Assembly: GCF_946900835.1 (NCBI RefSeq)
Contig: NZ_OX336137.1
Span: 1,228,213-1,292,212, forward strand
DNA: 64,000 nt
Source: Nitrospina watsonii
GTDB taxonomy: Bacteria > Nitrospinota > Nitrospinia > Nitrospinales > Nitrospinaceae
Direction of reading: 5' to 3'
The notes below the pieces were generated by a model. That model was given only the letters and a program-made list of their open reading frames with translations. It was not told where the DNA came from and searched no databases. Every line of letters starts with the position of its first letter. Position 1 is the first letter of the stretch. Positions 4,832 through 28,147 of the stretch are shown here, piece by piece. Both the position numbers and the translations under genes were made by a program.

Positions 4832-5147
4832 GCATCTTGAAAAAAAATGTGCCAACAATTTGCGTCCTCTTCAAATATCGCTTTTTAGGATGACTTTGAA
4901 TGAAGTCGGGAACTTCATAAAGCGACAGGCAAGATGATAACGATTTTTTTGCCCCACCAAACACTTTAATCTTAAAGCATTTTAAATTATATGTAAATAA
5001 TTACAATCATTGATTTTATTGTTTCAGGAGCCGCTGCAAGAGGATTTTCGGGGTAGCTTCGGATTGTGTGCGAGCTGGAGCCCGGATGAACCACCTTGAA
5101 TTTGAATGTTTTGGAGTTGGGCTTTGAAGGAAGCGGGGGAACCAGGA

Positions 5148-16638: not shown

Positions 16639-16828
16639 AACGACTCCTCAACGCAAAAAGTTTATTCCAAGTGTTTAATTTAATTAGCTTTTTTAGCTAT
16701 TTGGTGTATTTGGGGCAACAGGAAACGAGGTCCCGGTTTCAGGAATGTTCAGAACAACCTGATTTGCGGTGACTAAATTATCATGTTTGCCCGTGTAATA
16801 CAATTTTATTGAAGAATTTCAAATGAAA

Positions 16829-16847
16829 TTTGTCGAAATTCGACAAA
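16829..16847. promoter_or_regulatory. Perfect 9-1-9 palindrome TTTGTCGAA-A-TTCGACAAA in the AT-rich region upstream of the OFOR operon
   Basis: Read directly from the sequence. About 190 bp upstream of the alpha-subunit start codon. Candidate dimeric-regulator operator. Confidence 0.3.
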
Positions 16848-17040
16848 ACTCCCGGGGGAAGGACACTTCTACGAATCCCGATTGCCCGGAAATAACTATT
16901 ACCTATAATAAAATCAATATGTTATGTGGCCTCAGAGGGTGAGGACAAAGTCCGCAGTGTTTTCCTGGTTGTTGTAGCCTTGCAGGGTTGCTTAGGCCCA
17001 GAGGTGAACTTTTTGCGTCATTGTATTTTTGTCCAGATAT

Positions 17041-23337: not shown

Positions 23338-24027
23338 ATGCCCGATCAACTCGACCTGTTTTCCCAGCCGCCGGTGGAAGAGCCGGTAAAGCCCCAAAAA
23401 CCAAAGGATTTGGGGCCGCGTATCCTGTATTTCGACCTGGAGACGCAGAAGAGCGCCGATGAAGTGGGCGGCTGGGGCAATATCAAGGACATGCTGATGG
23501 CCGTCGGCGTCGTCTGGGACAGCCACGACCCGAAACACCACGTTTATTACGGCGAGCCGGACAAGAAGGACGGGCCGGGCTACACCGATCTCATCGACCA
23601 CCTCAAGTCCGCCGATCTGGTGGTCGGTTTCAACGTCATCGGCTTCGACTACACCGTCATCCAGGGCGCCGCCAGCCAGCGGCACATCGACTTGCTCGAC
23701 ATCCCCACCTTCGACATGCTCGTCGATTTCACCCAGAAAAAGAACCACCGCATCAAGCTCGACAACCTCGCCGGCTGCACGCTGGGCACGAAGAAGTCCG
23801 CCGACGGATTGATTTCACTGCAATGGTGGAAGGAATACCTGGGCGGGGACAAGATAAAGCTCGACCAGATCGTCGAGTACTGCAAGCAGGACGTCAACGT
23901 GACGCGTGACCTGTTCTTATTCGGCAAGGACCACGGCTACGTCGAGTACGACGGCCGCAGCGGCCAGCGCCTGCGCCTGAACGTGGACTGGACCGTCGAA
24001 ACCATCCTCAAATCCCCACATCGGTAA
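23338..24027 (+). CDS. PolB-type DEDDy 3'-5' exonuclease (COG3298-like)
   Basis: 229 aa. ExoI YFDLET, ExoII FNVIGFD and ExoIII YCKQDVNVTRD (YxxxD) motifs. Confidence 0.7.
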   Translation: MPDQLDLFSQPPVEEPVKPQKPKDLGPRILYFDLETQKSADEVGGWGNIKDMLMAVGVVWDSHDPKHHVYYGEPDKKDGPGYTDLIDHLKSADLVVGFNVIGFDYTVIQGAASQRHIDLLDIPTFDMLVDFTQKKNHRIKLDNLAGCTLGTKKSADGLISLQWWKEYLGGDKIKLDQIVEYCKQDVNVTRDLFLFGKDHGYVEYDGRSGQRLRLNVDWTVETILKSPHR

Positions 24028-24030
24028 ATA
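23977..24030. repeat. 54-bp perfect direct repeat, copy 1 (3' end of the exonuclease gene)
   Basis: Identical to 24917-24970. Verified base by base. Confidence 0.9.
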
Positions 24031-24094
24031 CGCGCACATCATTGCGGGAAGAAGAAGGGCTTATGGTCCGTGAGGGAAGAATCATAAGGTCCCT

Positions 24095-24250
24095 TTCCCC
24101 CCTCCCCTGTACCAAGGGGAGGGTCGGGGTGGGGTTTTGGAGTGCAACCCGTGTTCACGGGTTGCGACCACCAATACCTCCCCTCAATCCCCTCCTTGGA
24201 AAGGAGGGGAGATGATGGGGTCTCGCCGGAAGACGGTAGGCCGTCCTTGA
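24095..24250. repeat. Cluster of GC-rich REP-like hairpins
   Basis: Three hairpins here: CCCTCCCCT-GTACCA-AGGGGAGGG, GCAACCCGTG-TT-CACGGGTTGC and CCCCTCCTT-GGA-AAGGAGGGG. Related units occur at 26421-26530 and 53717-53789. Confidence 0.6.
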
Positions 24251-24373
24251 ATTTTGATTTCCCCGCGGCTTGAGTCTAAAATAGCGTGGAGTGCATTGAG
24301 AGCCGTCCGCCCGGCAAAGCCGGTTGAGGACATAATTAATGAGACCCTTGCGTAAGTGGGATTAAACCAAAAA

Positions 24374-24548
24374 CATAGATTCTTCGCTGACGCTCAGAAT
24401 GACAATTCAGGCTCCAGCATGTCATTCTGAGAAGCCGGGCCACGCCCGGAGGAGACAAGTGGCTTTTGGATTGGCTGACAACCCATCATTCGCCCTAATA
24501 GCAGAACCCTATTCCTCTCCCTGTAAGGGAGGCGACGAAGAATCTATG
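24374..24548. mobile_element. MITE-like element or structured RNA with 13-bp terminal inverted repeats
   Basis: CATAGATTCTTCG at 24374-24386 and CGAAGAATCTATG at 24536-24548. Internal hairpins include a perfect 12-bp stem (24393-24431), CCGGGC-CAC-GCCCGG, and CTCCC-TGTAA-GGGAG. Confidence 0.35.
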
Positions 24549-24604
24549 GGTTCACTCTTTTTAAGGCTTATGCGAAGCTCTCATTATTGATTGGAGATCG
24601 ATTC

Positions 24605-24835
24605 ATGAAACGCAATGTGATTCAGATCATTCTTTATCCGGGAGATCAAAGCGGCTATGTCGCCGAATGCGTCGGCCTGCCGGTCATCACCCAGGGGAGC
24701 ACGATCGACGAGACGGTGAAGAACATGCAGGAGGCGCTGGCTTTGCACCTCGACGGGGAGAACCTGGAAGAGTTGGAACTGTCACCCAATGCCCCCATCA
24801 TTGTGAGCATGGAGCTGCAACCGATTCATGGTTAA
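24605..24835 (+). CDS. hicB: HicB-family antitoxin (UPF0150)
   Basis: YPGDQSGYVAECVGLPVITQGSTIDETVKNMQEALALHLDGE, typical HicB RNase H-like fold signature. The ORF begins at 24587. Confidence 0.7.
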   Translation: MKRNVIQIILYPGDQSGYVAECVGLPVITQGSTIDETVKNMQEALALHLDGENLEELELSPNAPIIVSMELQPIHG

Positions 24836-24920
24836 ACTGCGCCGCCTGTCCGGAGGGCAAGTGGTAGCGATCCTGGAGAACTTCGGGTTTTCTCCAATCG
24901 GGCAAAAGGGAAGCATCTGA
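24828..24920 (+). pseudogene. hicA: HicA toxin, truncated after 30 codons
   Basis: Translates to MVKLRRLSGGQVVAILENFGFSPIGQKGSI*, which stops just before the conserved GSH catalytic region. The TGA stop lies inside the 54-bp repeat copy 2. Confidence 0.55.
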
Positions 24921-24970
24921 ACGTGGACTGGACCGTCGAAACCATCCTCAAATCCCCACATCGGTAAATA
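24917..24970. repeat. 54-bp perfect direct repeat, copy 2
   Basis: Identical to 23977-24030. Confidence 0.9.
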
Positions 24971-24978
24971 AAAGTTTG

Positions 24979-25362
24979 CTAGTACATATGTGTTCTGCCT
25001 AGTAGATATATCTTGGTTTGTTTGGCGGGCATTTTGTTGTATTCACGACATTCTGATTGTCCGCCTTCAAAAATATATCCCTGCTTTCCAAATCGGTTCA
25101 AAATCTGAATTTCAGAAACTCCTTTTAGACCCTTAGGCTTTTTTATTATTCCGGTACAAATTCCACCAATCATGGCTTGATATATTGTTTCTGTGACTCG
25201 CCGCTCTTTAGAGATGATTTCAACAATTCCTTGTTTGTGATTTACGGATTTTGGTTGCCACAGTTTCAGACTATTTAAAATCTGCGTTGAAACGGAGTCG
25301 GCATATACAGGAGTTATAAAAAAGAGAGATATTAATAAGATTTTCGGAAGAGTTCTTATCAA
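24979..25362 (-). CDS. Small secreted hypothetical protein (low-GC; TTG start overlapping the MoxR stop)
   Basis: 127 aa. Signal peptide ILLISLFFITPVYA-DS. GAGGTG RBS inside the MoxR 3' end. Local GC is about 38%. Confidence 0.45.
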   Translation of the reverse strand: MIRTLPKILLISLFFITPVYADSVSTQILNSLKLWQPKSVNHKQGIVEIISKERRVTETIYQAMIGGICTGIIKKPKGLKGVSEIQILNRFGKQGYIFEGGQSECREYNKMPAKQTKIYLLGRTHMY

Positions 25363-26354
25363 ACCTTCACCTCAGCGAGTAGCTTGTCGATGATGTCCTG
25401 GGTTTTGATGTTTTCGGCTTCGGCTTTGAAGTTGAGCAGGATGCGGTGTTCCAGCACCTGCTGGCTGACGCTTTTGATGTCGTCGATGGTGACGGCGACG
25501 CGGTTGTCCATCAGCGCCCGCGCCTTGGCGGCCAGCACCAGGTACTGACTGGCGCGCGGCCCCGCCCCCCAACTGACCCACTCGGTGACGAATCCCGGCG
25601 TCGTGCCGTTCCCCGGTCGTGACGCCCTAACCAAATCCACCGCATACCGCGCGACGTGATCCGACACCGGCACCTTCGGCACCAGCTTCTGCAAGGCCAG
25701 AATGCGGTCGGCCTCCATCACCACCTCCAGTTCCGGCTTCACGCCCGACGTGGTGGACAGCGCGATCTGCACCTCCTGCTCCTTGGTCGGGTAATCGACG
25801 TTGATGATGAACATGAAGCGGTCGAGCTGCGCCTCGGGCAGGGGATAGGTGCCCTCGTGTTCGATGGGGTTCTGCGTGGCGAACACGAGGAACGGCGGCT
25901 CGAGGTGATACGTGTTCGAGCCCACCGTCACCTGGTGTTCCTGCATGGCCTGCAACAGCGCCGCCTGCGTTTTCGGCGGGGTGCGGTTGATCTCGTCGGC
26001 CAAAATGATGTTGGCGAAGATGGGGCCGCGGATGAAGCGGAACTCGCGTTTGTTCGTCGCCTGGTCCTCGTACAGGATCTCGGTGCCGGTGATGTCCGAC
26101 GGCATGAGGTCGGGCGTGAACTGGATGCGGCTGAACTTGAGGTTGAGGACTTTCGCCAGCGAGCTGACGAGCAGCGTCTTGGCCAGCCCCGGCACGCCGA
26201 CGAACAGGCAGTGCCCGCGCGAGAACAGGGCGACCAGGAGGTCTTCGATGACGGCGTCCTGGCCGATGATGACCTTGCGGATTTCTTTCAGGACGTTGTT
26301 TTTGGCTTCCAGCAGCTCGCGGGCGAGATCGAGATCGGGCGTCGTTTGGTCCAT
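25359..26354 (-). CDS. MoxR-family AAA+ ATPase
   Basis: 331 aa, Walker A GVPGLAKT, Walker B ILADEINR, typical MoxR size. Confidence 0.9.
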   Translation of the reverse strand: MDQTTPDLDLARELLEAKNNVLKEIRKVIIGQDAVIEDLLVALFSRGHCLFVGVPGLAKTLLVSSLAKVLNLKFSRIQFTPDLMPSDITGTEILYEDQATNKREFRFIRGPIFANIILADEINRTPPKTQAALLQAMQEHQVTVGSNTYHLEPPFLVFATQNPIEHEGTYPLPEAQLDRFMFIINVDYPTKEQEVQIALSTTSGVKPELEVVMEADRILALQKLVPKVPVSDHVARYAVDLVRASRPGNGTTPGFVTEWVSWGAGPRASQYLVLAAKARALMDNRVAVTIDDIKSVSQQVLEHRILLNFKAEAENIKTQDIIDKLLAEVKV

Positions 26355-26569: not shown

Positions 26570-28147
26570 TCATTTTATCAGAGCCAGCAGGGTTTCCTGA
26601 TGTCCTTTCTTTGCGTTTTCGCCCAGTGCGGCGTAGATGCGGATCAGCCGCTGATGGACCTGCGGATTGAACGGATTGATGCGTTCCGCGCGCTGATAGT
26701 ACTCGCGCGCCGCTTCGTAATCCTTGCGCAGGAACGCCACCTCGCCGAGATTCGTGAGCGTGCTGGGGAACTGCGGATAGTATTCGAGGCTCTGCCGCAG
26801 CAGGGTTTCGGACTCATCGTACTTGCGCGTGATCATGTAGGTGTCGGCCAGCTTGTTGTACAGCACCGGCGACAGCGTGTCCGACTCCGAGATGGCTTTG
26901 CGGTACTCGATGATGGCGGCCTGGATGTGGTCGCGGCTCTTTAAAATGTCGCCCAGCATGGTGAGGTCGCGGGCACGGCGGCTTTCGATGAGGGCGCGTT
27001 CGCCGTCTTCATCCTCGGCGCGGCCGTTGTCGCGTTTGTCCTTGAACTGGAACTTGAGCACCTTGAGGCCGGGGATGCGTCTCAGTTGCTGCGTTTTGAT
27101 ATAAACCTTCCAGTCGTCCTGAAACCGGTCGAGCGTTTTGCCCACCAGTGTCTGCAGCACGTCACCGATGGGGCGGTTGTCTTTCAGGCCCGCCACCAGC
27201 GCTTCCAGTCCTTCGAGGCCTTTCAGGTGCACGAGGTACTGCACCATCGTCGCCACCTCGGCGTAGGCGAGTTGCACGTCCTCGGCGGTTTTGAGTTTGG
27301 CGAGCGACGGCATCATCGCTTCGAAATCGATCAGGTAATCGTTGTCGAGTCCGTTGGCCAGCACCGTTTCCATGATGGGGGTCAGGTGGCGGGGTTCACC
27401 GCGCCAGCGCGTCTCCAGGAATTTGGCGATGCCTTCATGCAGCCACAGCGGCACGTTGTTGTGGCTCTTGCTGCTCAGCAGGAAGTGCACGTACTCGTGG
27501 CTGATGGTGTCCAGCCAGTTGTAGCCGCGCACCAGCGAGCCCGGCGAGATGAGCATCAGCCGGTTGTACTTGCACAGGGCGACGGTGCCGGAGGTCATGA
27601 TGTCCTGCAAAGTGAGCGGCGAGATACGCGAAAACGGTTCGCGGCTGGGATAGATTTCCACCCGCACTTTCTCTTTCGGGTGGTGATCGAGGATGCCGCC
27701 CAGCACGGCGTAGGATTTTTCCAGCGTGTCGAGGGCGTAGTCCACCAGCACCGCATCCGGGCCGTCGGTGTAGCGCAGGATGAAGTGCTCCGATTCGCGG
27801 GTGACCATCCCCTGGGTGGCCTGATGCGTTTCGCGGACGTGGTGTTTGAACTCTTTAACGGTCGGCGCGGAGTCCGCGACTTTTCCGAGAAGGTCGAGCG
27901 CGCGGGCGTAGTCGCCTTGATAAAACACCAGCCGCGCCTGCAGAAACAGCACGTCGCCGGAGTCGGGGTACGTGTCCATCAACGATTGCGTGTGGGCTTC
28001 GGCTTCCTCGAAGCGCCACTGGTCGATGAGCGAATAACCTTTAGTGATATCTTCCTGCAACCCCGCGGTCACTGGAGCGGCAAACAGCGCGCCGCCCAGC
28101 AGAATGACGGCGATGGCAACGGCGATGCGGTGCAGGTGCGTTTTCAT
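26570..28147 (-). CDS. Secreted TPR-repeat protein with HExxH...ExxA (Peptidase_MA_2-like) metallopeptidase motif
   Basis: 525 aa. Signal peptide (AVAIAVILLGGALFAAPVTA). ISHEYVHFLL followed by WLHEGIAKF. TPR-like helices on both sides. Confidence 0.7.
   Translation of the reverse strand: MKTHLHRIAVAIAVILLGGALFAAPVTAGLQEDITKGYSLIDQWRFEEAEAHTQSLMDTYPDSGDVLFLQARLVFYQGDYARALDLLGKVADSAPTVKEFKHHVRETHQATQGMVTRESEHFILRYTDGPDAVLVDYALDTLEKSYAVLGGILDHHPKEKVRVEIYPSREPFSRISPLTLQDIMTSGTVALCKYNRLMLISPGSLVRGYNWLDTISHEYVHFLLSSKSHNNVPLWLHEGIAKFLETRWRGEPRHLTPIMETVLANGLDNDYLIDFEAMMPSLAKLKTAEDVQLAYAEVATMVQYLVHLKGLEGLEALVAGLKDNRPIGDVLQTLVGKTLDRFQDDWKVYIKTQQLRRIPGLKVLKFQFKDKRDNGRAEDEDGERALIESRRARDLTMLGDILKSRDHIQAAIIEYRKAISESDTLSPVLYNKLADTYMITRKYDESETLLRQSLEYYPQFPSTLTNLGEVAFLRKDYEAAREYYQRAERINPFNPQVHQRLIRIYAALGENAKKGHQETLLALIK

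Follow-up and report, generated by a model that had tools for sequence, protein, structure and literature searches.

A stretch of DNA that departs sharply in base composition from its surroundings and lies directly behind a resident housekeeping gene raises three questions: whether it is a gene at all, where it came from and whether it can be expressed where it now stands. Such a stretch occurs in Nitrospina watsonii, in the 64,000-nt segment of the genome that we analyzed (the window), where it adjoins the 3' end of a gene coding for a MoxR-family AAA+ ATPase (Pfam AAA_3 at 1.3e-62, plus AAA_lid_2). A first-pass annotation had proposed that about 390 bp of foreign, low-GC DNA, coding for a 127-aa protein with a signal peptide (orf127), had been grafted behind this gene and coupled to it translationally through a TTG start codon. 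The features that bear on this proposal are collected in Table 1.

Table 1. Features of the moxR/exonuclease junction of N. watsonii, in window coordinates
Feature	Position	Strand	Remarks
RNase H-like (RNase_H_2) exonuclease gene, convergent ancestral moxR neighbor	23338..24027	+	CAI2718043.1; Pfam PF13482 at 3.4e-14
Direct-repeat copy 1	23977..24030	+	Genuine 3' end of the exonuclease gene
Non-coding, hairpin-rich stretch ahead of hicB	24031..24604	.	~570 bp
hicB-like antitoxin gene	24605..24835	+	CAI2718044.1; second insertion at the same spot
Truncated hicA toxin gene	24828..24920	+	29 native codons, cut at the conserved GSH motif
Direct-repeat copy 2	24917..24970	+	Repeats the final 51 nt of the exonuclease gene and 3 nt more; adjoins orf127 on its 3' side
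orf127	24979..25362	-	Intact 384-bp ORF, 127 aa, TTG start; predicted exported protein of the phrog_3807 family
TTGA stop/start overlap	25359..25362	-	orf127 TTG 25362-25360, MoxR TGA 25361-25359, two bases in common
SD-like element GAGGTGAAGG	25364..25373	-	In the last MoxR codons (Glu-Val-Lys)
MoxR-family AAA+ ATPase gene (resident, upstream)	25359..26354	-	CAI2718045.1 / WP_282010955.1, exact match

The compositional anomaly is borne out by a sliding-window analysis. The stretch 24971-25362 has a GC content of 36.0%, against a window mean of 56.7% (standard deviation 4.9%, 392-bp windows), and at 4.2 standard deviations below that mean it is the GC minimum among all 392-bp windows of the 64 kb. 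The drop starts exactly where the second copy of a direct repeat ends (24970), as had been claimed, and codon usage points the same way, with a GC3 of 0.32 in orf127 versus 0.89 in the adjacent MoxR gene. Elsewhere in the window, two further patches fall below 42% GC in 392-bp windows (~4860-5147 and ~16640-17030); both are intergenic, each preceding a large gene (by eye, a MutS-like ORF in one case and an oxidoreductase-like ORF in the other), and are probably promoter regions, not foreign genes.

Low GC content, the lack of an ORF call in the deposited annotations and the intergenic position of these two further low-GC patches are also what one would see if orf127 were spurious and the stretch were an AT-rich 3' untranslated region or terminator of moxR, the alternative that the first-pass annotation had itself named. 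We put the probability of that reading close to nil: orf127 has homologs with E values down to 1e-36, 294 clusters of relatives, a match to a phage protein family and a confident structural model. Moreover, no terminator-like hairpin was found within the low-GC stretch or between moxR and orf127, and the strains that lack the insert lack any such sequence. Because its homologs are conserved and it matches PHROG 3807 (E value of 1e-25), we judge orf127 to be a real and intact coding gene. The homology search retrieved no shorter version of it. The exact 127-aa sequence is absent from a collection of 15 billion proteins, in which its three neighbors are present under consecutive CAI and WP accession numbers; orf127 thus seems to lack an entry in the ENA and RefSeq records alike, the two public annotations of N. 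watsonii 347 having apparently missed it.

The homology search with the 127-aa protein, which had been suggested as a check, recovered 12 metagenome homologs of 121 to 130 aa (46 to 57% identity; E values of 1e-30 to 1e-36), the closest of which, at 57% identity, comes from an unrelated context. When 1.84 billion cluster representatives were searched with a profile, the family grew to 294 clusters, 186 of them at E values of 1e-10 or below, most being stand-alone proteins of 120 to 135 aa; a second, word-indexed homology search with a deep alignment added little. Comparison with the PHROG profiles matched orf127 to phrog_3807 (E value of 1.1e-25, 91 bits), residues 11-127 aligning with positions 11-132 of the 135 in the profile, and all 95 relatives tested match the same family, which is annotated as being of "unknown function." Searches of Pfam and NCBIfam with orf127, and of Pfam with the 95 relatives, assigned no family; a sequence profile search of the PDB gave chance matches only (E values of 0.1 or above), and PADLOC returned no match for orf127 or its close relatives. 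The residues that are nearly invariant in the 95-member alignment (P37, C69, N89, G95 and C105) are all retained in orf127, as are the invariant columns of the smaller alignment and the family motifs, namely, W-x-P, the cysteine pair, LN.F..QGY.FEGG and a C-terminal LG.TH. By profile, conserved residues and architecture, orf127 is therefore a member of the phrog_3807 family.

The N terminus of orf127 reads MIRTLPK, followed by the hydrophobic segment ILLISLFFITPV and a putative cleavage site, VYA-DS. The signal-peptide call, although heuristic only (K/R followed by a hydrophobic 10-mer), agrees with the earlier proposal, and the same pattern is found in 92 of the 95 family members. Exactly two cysteines are present in the mature part of 90 of the 95, and a lipobox-like motif in just 2. 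The combination of this N terminus, the two cysteines and the rarity of the lipobox suggests a family of soluble, Sec-exported and probably disulfide-bonded proteins; the orf127 product would likewise be exported by Sec, probably with a disulfide bond, leaving a predicted mature form of ~105 aa that is basic (17 K/R versus 7 D/E). AlphaFold2, given the 95-sequence alignment, produced an alpha/beta model with a pLDDT of 93 and a pTM of 0.81, as opposed to a pLDDT of 47 with an alignment of 13 sequences. In a library of viral protein structures, this model matched only uncharacterized proteins of Serratia phage KSP20 and of Klebsiella prophages, the TM score against the BFVD model of the KSP20 protein being 0.78. 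In a few family members (P0042, P0035, P0084 and P0115), the ~105-aa domain is found at the C terminus of longer envelope proteins, which include a secreted pentapeptide-repeat protein, a staphylococcal-nuclease fusion and membrane-anchored coiled-coil proteins. These C-terminal fusions suggest that the domain is a portable binding module.

The contexts in which homologs occur show that the family is borne by mobile elements: phages, plasmids and islands carrying integrases or transposases, in unrelated bacteria. Among deposited P2-like phages, 21 carry it (Peduoviridae of Klebsiella, Yersinia, Salmonella and Serratia); in the three that we inspected, the gene is labeled "hypothetical protein" and adjoins int, or a regulator gene, and the tail gene D, a position that we take to be the attP region. 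In genomes of 28 to 30% GC, homologs are found in prophages between tail/baseplate genes and an S24 repressor-like gene, and another, with AbiJ beside it, is the terminal gene of a prophage. Eight plasmids carry the family, among them NC_009444.1 of Pseudomonas fluorescens SBW25 and a 5.8-kb plasmid of Halomonas, and a further homolog, in a context read from its ORFs, shares a small plasmid with mobilization, relaxase, toxin and Rep genes. Other homologs lie beside a DDE transposase and AbiGi, in an island of 38 to 47% GC next to a cobalamin operon of 72% GC; near a zinc-ribbon protein and an N6/N4 methyltransferase; and, with an AIPR-like gene close by, between an integrase and a ParA-like gene (again as read from the ORFs). 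The GC content of the homologous genes tracks that of the host, from 27 to 58%. In none of the contexts inspected does a homolog adjoin MoxR.

We then compared the MoxR loci of the Nitrospinaceae. In about 25 of 37 such loci, MoxR is followed directly by the convergent exonuclease gene, and a homolog of orf127 is present in none of the 37; it is also absent from the four closest strains. The stop codons of the two genes are 15 nt apart in Nitrospina gracilis 3/211 and 12 nt apart in Nitrospina sp. 32_T5, strains with an empty site whose MoxR is 96% identical; relative to this empty site, N. watsonii has ~1.33 kb of extra DNA. Other strains carry different cargo at the same place, always between moxR and the exonuclease gene and co-oriented with moxR. 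A second N. gracilis genome has an NspV-family restriction enzyme with an N6 methyltransferase (L106:3997-6319; 2.3 kb, 39.5% GC), and another Nitrospina strain has a HIRAN-domain gene (L108:3997-5084; 1.1 kb, 34% GC). In two more distant relatives, with functions read from the sequence, the junction holds an amidase-like gene (L024:7104-7886) or small secreted proteins with an M4-like protease (L006:7275-10416). Because the cargo at this one site differs from strain to strain, the moxR/exonuclease junction is a hot spot at which insertions vary among Nitrospina strains. It has no integrase, tRNA gene or att-type repeat linked to it. Next to the exonuclease gene, we noted that fliD is called as two pieces of 219 and 359 aa in N. 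gracilis 3/211 (L104:4915-6752) and as a single gene of 539 aa in a near-identical contig (L105:4915-6534); the split in the 3/211 assembly may reflect a frameshift or a sequencing error.

The absence from 37 loci, the homologs on mobile elements and the GC3 of 0.32 versus 0.89 support the view that orf127 was acquired horizontally, is specific to this strain and is linked to mobile elements. Together with the 12- to 15-nt empty sites, they uphold the earlier claim that foreign DNA was grafted behind MoxR. It had been recognized at that stage that MoxR loci of relatives carrying the same gene would argue for vertical inheritance, in which case orf127 would be an ancestral Nitrospina gene lost in the relatives. 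We found no support for such a history, which is exceedingly improbable given 37 loci and four closest strains without the gene, two of them with spacers of 12 to 15 nt, the low GC3 and a closest homolog of only 57% identity from an unrelated context.

The extra DNA comprises more than orf127. Reading from the exonuclease gene, its stop and repeat copy 1 are followed by the hairpin-rich stretch, the hicB-like gene, the cut hicA, repeat copy 2, 8 nt and then orf127 in reverse orientation. The two repeat copies are exact over 54 nt, which cannot be a matter of chance, and the sequence of copy 2 corresponds in relatives to the true 3' end of the exonuclease gene beside MoxR. The hairpin-rich stretch contains perfect palindromes (24144-24165, 24188-24210 and 24393-24431) and a 13-nt inverted repeat (24374/24548); Rfam gave sub-threshold hairpin matches only over 23900-25500, and no second copy of 24031-24604 exists within the window. 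The source records name the hicB product HicB, though its Pfam match is sub-threshold. No intact HicA accompanies it in the window, hicA being cut exactly at the boundary of repeat copy 2, and this truncation apparently leaves an orphan antitoxin. A metagenome contig (L103) carries an intact hicBA pair of 82% DNA identity, with a HicA of 80 aa that matches PF07927. Since the similarity to that pair stops within 3 nt of repeat copy 2, the hicA/repeat-2 boundary is likely to be a joint of illegitimate recombination.

An exact 54-nt repeat flanking an odd joint inside a gene could also betray an assembly chimera or a contaminant joined through the repeat. However, both flanks are native Nitrospina sequence, and the N. 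watsonii 347 genome is a closed Nanopore and Illumina hybrid assembly from a pure culture, with a GC content of 57.16% (PMC10112255). With a Nanopore N50 of 8.2 kb and Illumina reads of 2x300 (PMC10112255), single reads span the 940-bp repeat unit. A closed hybrid genome from a pure culture thus makes a chimera unlikely, and we regard it as very improbable.

As regards the route of entry, we considered and set aside an attC/integron cassette and att-type integration for orf127, which has a 3' flank of 8 nt and no integrase, the L106 and L108 inserts being free of repeats. A flanking duplication at the junction is in fact confined to N. watsonii. The preferred reading is that the foreign orf127 entered the very short gap separating the two convergent stop codons as a naked ORF lacking a promoter, and that a hicBA cassette, since truncated, arrived beside it along with the duplicated 54 nt from the end of the exonuclease gene. 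Such events could be accounted for by illegitimate recombination facilitated by homology, in which either the exonuclease or the MoxR gene anchored one end.

The joint on the MoxR side bears on expression. The minus-strand text here runs ...GCT GAG GTG AAG GTT TGA TAA GAA CTC..., so that the TTG of orf127 takes its first T from the end of the last sense codon of MoxR and its TG from the TGA stop. The overlap proposed in the first-pass annotation is therefore real, though the text is GT-TTG-A, the earlier G-TTG-A being one T short. No canonical in-frame start other than the TTG (25362-25360) precedes codon 64 of orf127, and four codons ahead of that TTG the frame is closed by a TGA; as the only usable start, the TTG is where orf127 must begin if it is made with its signal peptide. 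Similarity among close strains extends through GAGGTGAA and ends at the last MoxR codon. This codon and the stop differ among strains (GTT TGA, ATC TGA, ACC TGA, GCT TAA and GTG TAA), while the window and strain 32_T5 both have TGATAA at the MoxR side and diverge immediately thereafter. It is a matter of speculation that a joint within this common TGATAA could have turned a native ATG-ATA-A... start into TTG-ATA-A.... The idea that GTT TGA arose here by mutation was dropped, since the last codon and stop vary by strain and GTT TGA also occurs in L038, where there is no insert.

The stop/start overlap is accompanied by an SD-like sequence in the upstream gene. It comprises GAGGTG at 25373-25368, directly followed by AAGG; the measured spacing from GAGGTG to the TTG is 5 nt, which corrects the 3 nt given before. 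The GAGGTGAA segment is conserved in strains without the insert. As ancestral MoxR Glu-Val codons that are found without the insert too, GAGGTG is a fortuitous, pre-existing element that was not imported with the graft. A native overlap of similar form exists between two genes upstream of moxR: at 28144-28147 of the window, a DUF4175 gene and a TPR/peptidase-MA gene overlap by ATGA. A gap of 215 nt separates moxR from this pair, and because of it the "MoxR operon" may be two transcription units.

A scan for promoters and terminators at the borders of orf127 found no site above the expectation from shuffled sequence, and its stop is only 8 nt from repeat copy 2. Since there is no room for a promoter and the sole start lies in the TTGA overlap, any expression of orf127 must come by read-through from the moxR transcript. 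On the basis of these observations, we propose, with a probability of roughly 75%, that orf127 is acquired mobile-element cargo, lodged without a promoter behind moxR, and expressed by transcriptional read-through and re-initiation at the TTGA overlap. Under this proposal, ribosomes finishing MoxR at its TGA would start again on the TTG of orf127, aided by GAGGTGAAGG, and the product would be exported to the periplasm; both the transcriptional and the translational coupling of moxR and orf127 are predictions from the sequence.

Some of the same facts would fit a recent foreign fragment that is intact and silent, the TTG/TGA overlap being an accident of the joint. TTG is a weak initiator, the gene has no promoter of its own, and the SD-like element, being made of old MoxR codons, did not evolve for orf127, all of which count against expression. 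The neighboring hicA is already broken, the un-ameliorated GC content of 36% points to a recent arrival, and a very recent insert could stay intact though unused. Against this, orf127 is not truncated, has lost none of the near-invariant residues and can be aligned with phrog_3807 from one end to the other; the joint preserves a signal peptide of normal length (the relative P0014 is also 127 aa long); and the geometry of the overlap resembles that of the native ATGA overlap upstream. We consider a silent passenger unlikely, though a serious contender, and favor the read-through and re-initiation proposal.

What such a product would do is a guess from context. The accessory positions of the homologs in phages, their Abi, restriction-modification (R-M) and toxin-antitoxin (TA) neighbors, their presence on plasmids and the fusions to envelope proteins make us think, as the likeliest guess though at odds well short of even, of a role for mobile elements at the level of the envelope, such as superinfection or entry exclusion or the binding of an envelope target. 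If the family does provide such a periplasmic accessory factor, orf127 would be an orphan passenger in Nitrospina. A bolder version holds that phrog_3807 is a new periplasmic fold that serves phages, plasmids and integrative elements for envelope exclusion or protection and that the Nitrospina copy is a domesticated, functional "promoterless capture" under the translational control of MoxR, of a kind that annotation pipelines systematically miss; this we hold to be quite doubtful.

Taken as a whole, orf127 is a genuine horizontal acquisition of a fairly ordinary sort and changes no major question; what is mildly unusual is that a bare ORF was captured on the stop codon of a resident gene, that annotation apparently missed it and that its family is uncharacterized. 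Its significance is that a conserved gene is seemingly missing from both public annotations of a type-strain genome from a major group of marine nitrite oxidizers, and that the moxR/exonuclease junction stands out in Nitrospina as a strain-variable hot spot, most of whose foreign cargo is of the defense type. It offers a clean natural case of a foreign ORF that came without regulatory DNA and has its start built on a resident stop, a simple route by which acquired genes may come to be expressed. It also draws attention to an uncharacterized, exported mobile-element family of about 300 clusters with a confidently predicted fold and no solved relative.

Several known systems offer points of comparison. 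The likeness to anti-phage defense consists of neighborhood ties to AbiGi, AbiJ, AIPR-like, R-M and TA genes, with no PADLOC match. The named phage members of phrog_3807 (Salmonella phage FSL SP-004 gp27, Yersinia phage P37 gp16, Klebsiella phage ST147-VIM1phi7.1 gp35 and a protein of Serratia phage KSP20) share with orf127 their size, the signal peptide and two-cysteine pattern and a full-length profile match, but only 27 to 35% identity. Unlike them, orf127 has no phage around it and no promoter region of its own, and its start is joined to the stop of a housekeeping gene. The homologs are placed like phage morons or lysogenic-conversion genes (between int and ogr/gpD, beside an S24 repressor gene, or at a prophage end next to AbiJ), and orf127 itself is moron-like in having a GC content unlike that of its host and a small product predicted to be exported. 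However, it lies outside any prophage, with moxR, the hicBA remnant and the exonuclease gene as neighbors, and whereas classical morons have their own promoter and terminator, orf127 has neither.

The junction, in turn, recalls the strain-variable integration hot spots and "defense islands" that lie among conserved core genes. It likewise holds R-M, HIRAN, hicBA-remnant, amidase-like or protease cargo, and the two inserts that were measured, L106 and L108, are of low GC content; orf127 itself is absent from relatives, deviates in composition and has alternative cargo in its place in other strains. In contrast to integration hot spots, the junction is devoid of an integrase, a tRNA gene and an att-type repeat. 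Finally, the moxR/orf127 pair may be set beside the translationally coupled gene pairs that overlap by ATGA, GTGA or TTGA. It differs from them in that the two genes did not co-evolve, the downstream gene being foreign and the SD-like element pre-existing, and the coupling is putative; yet it has the same 4-nt overlap, and the upstream gene likewise contains an SD-like sequence close to its end.
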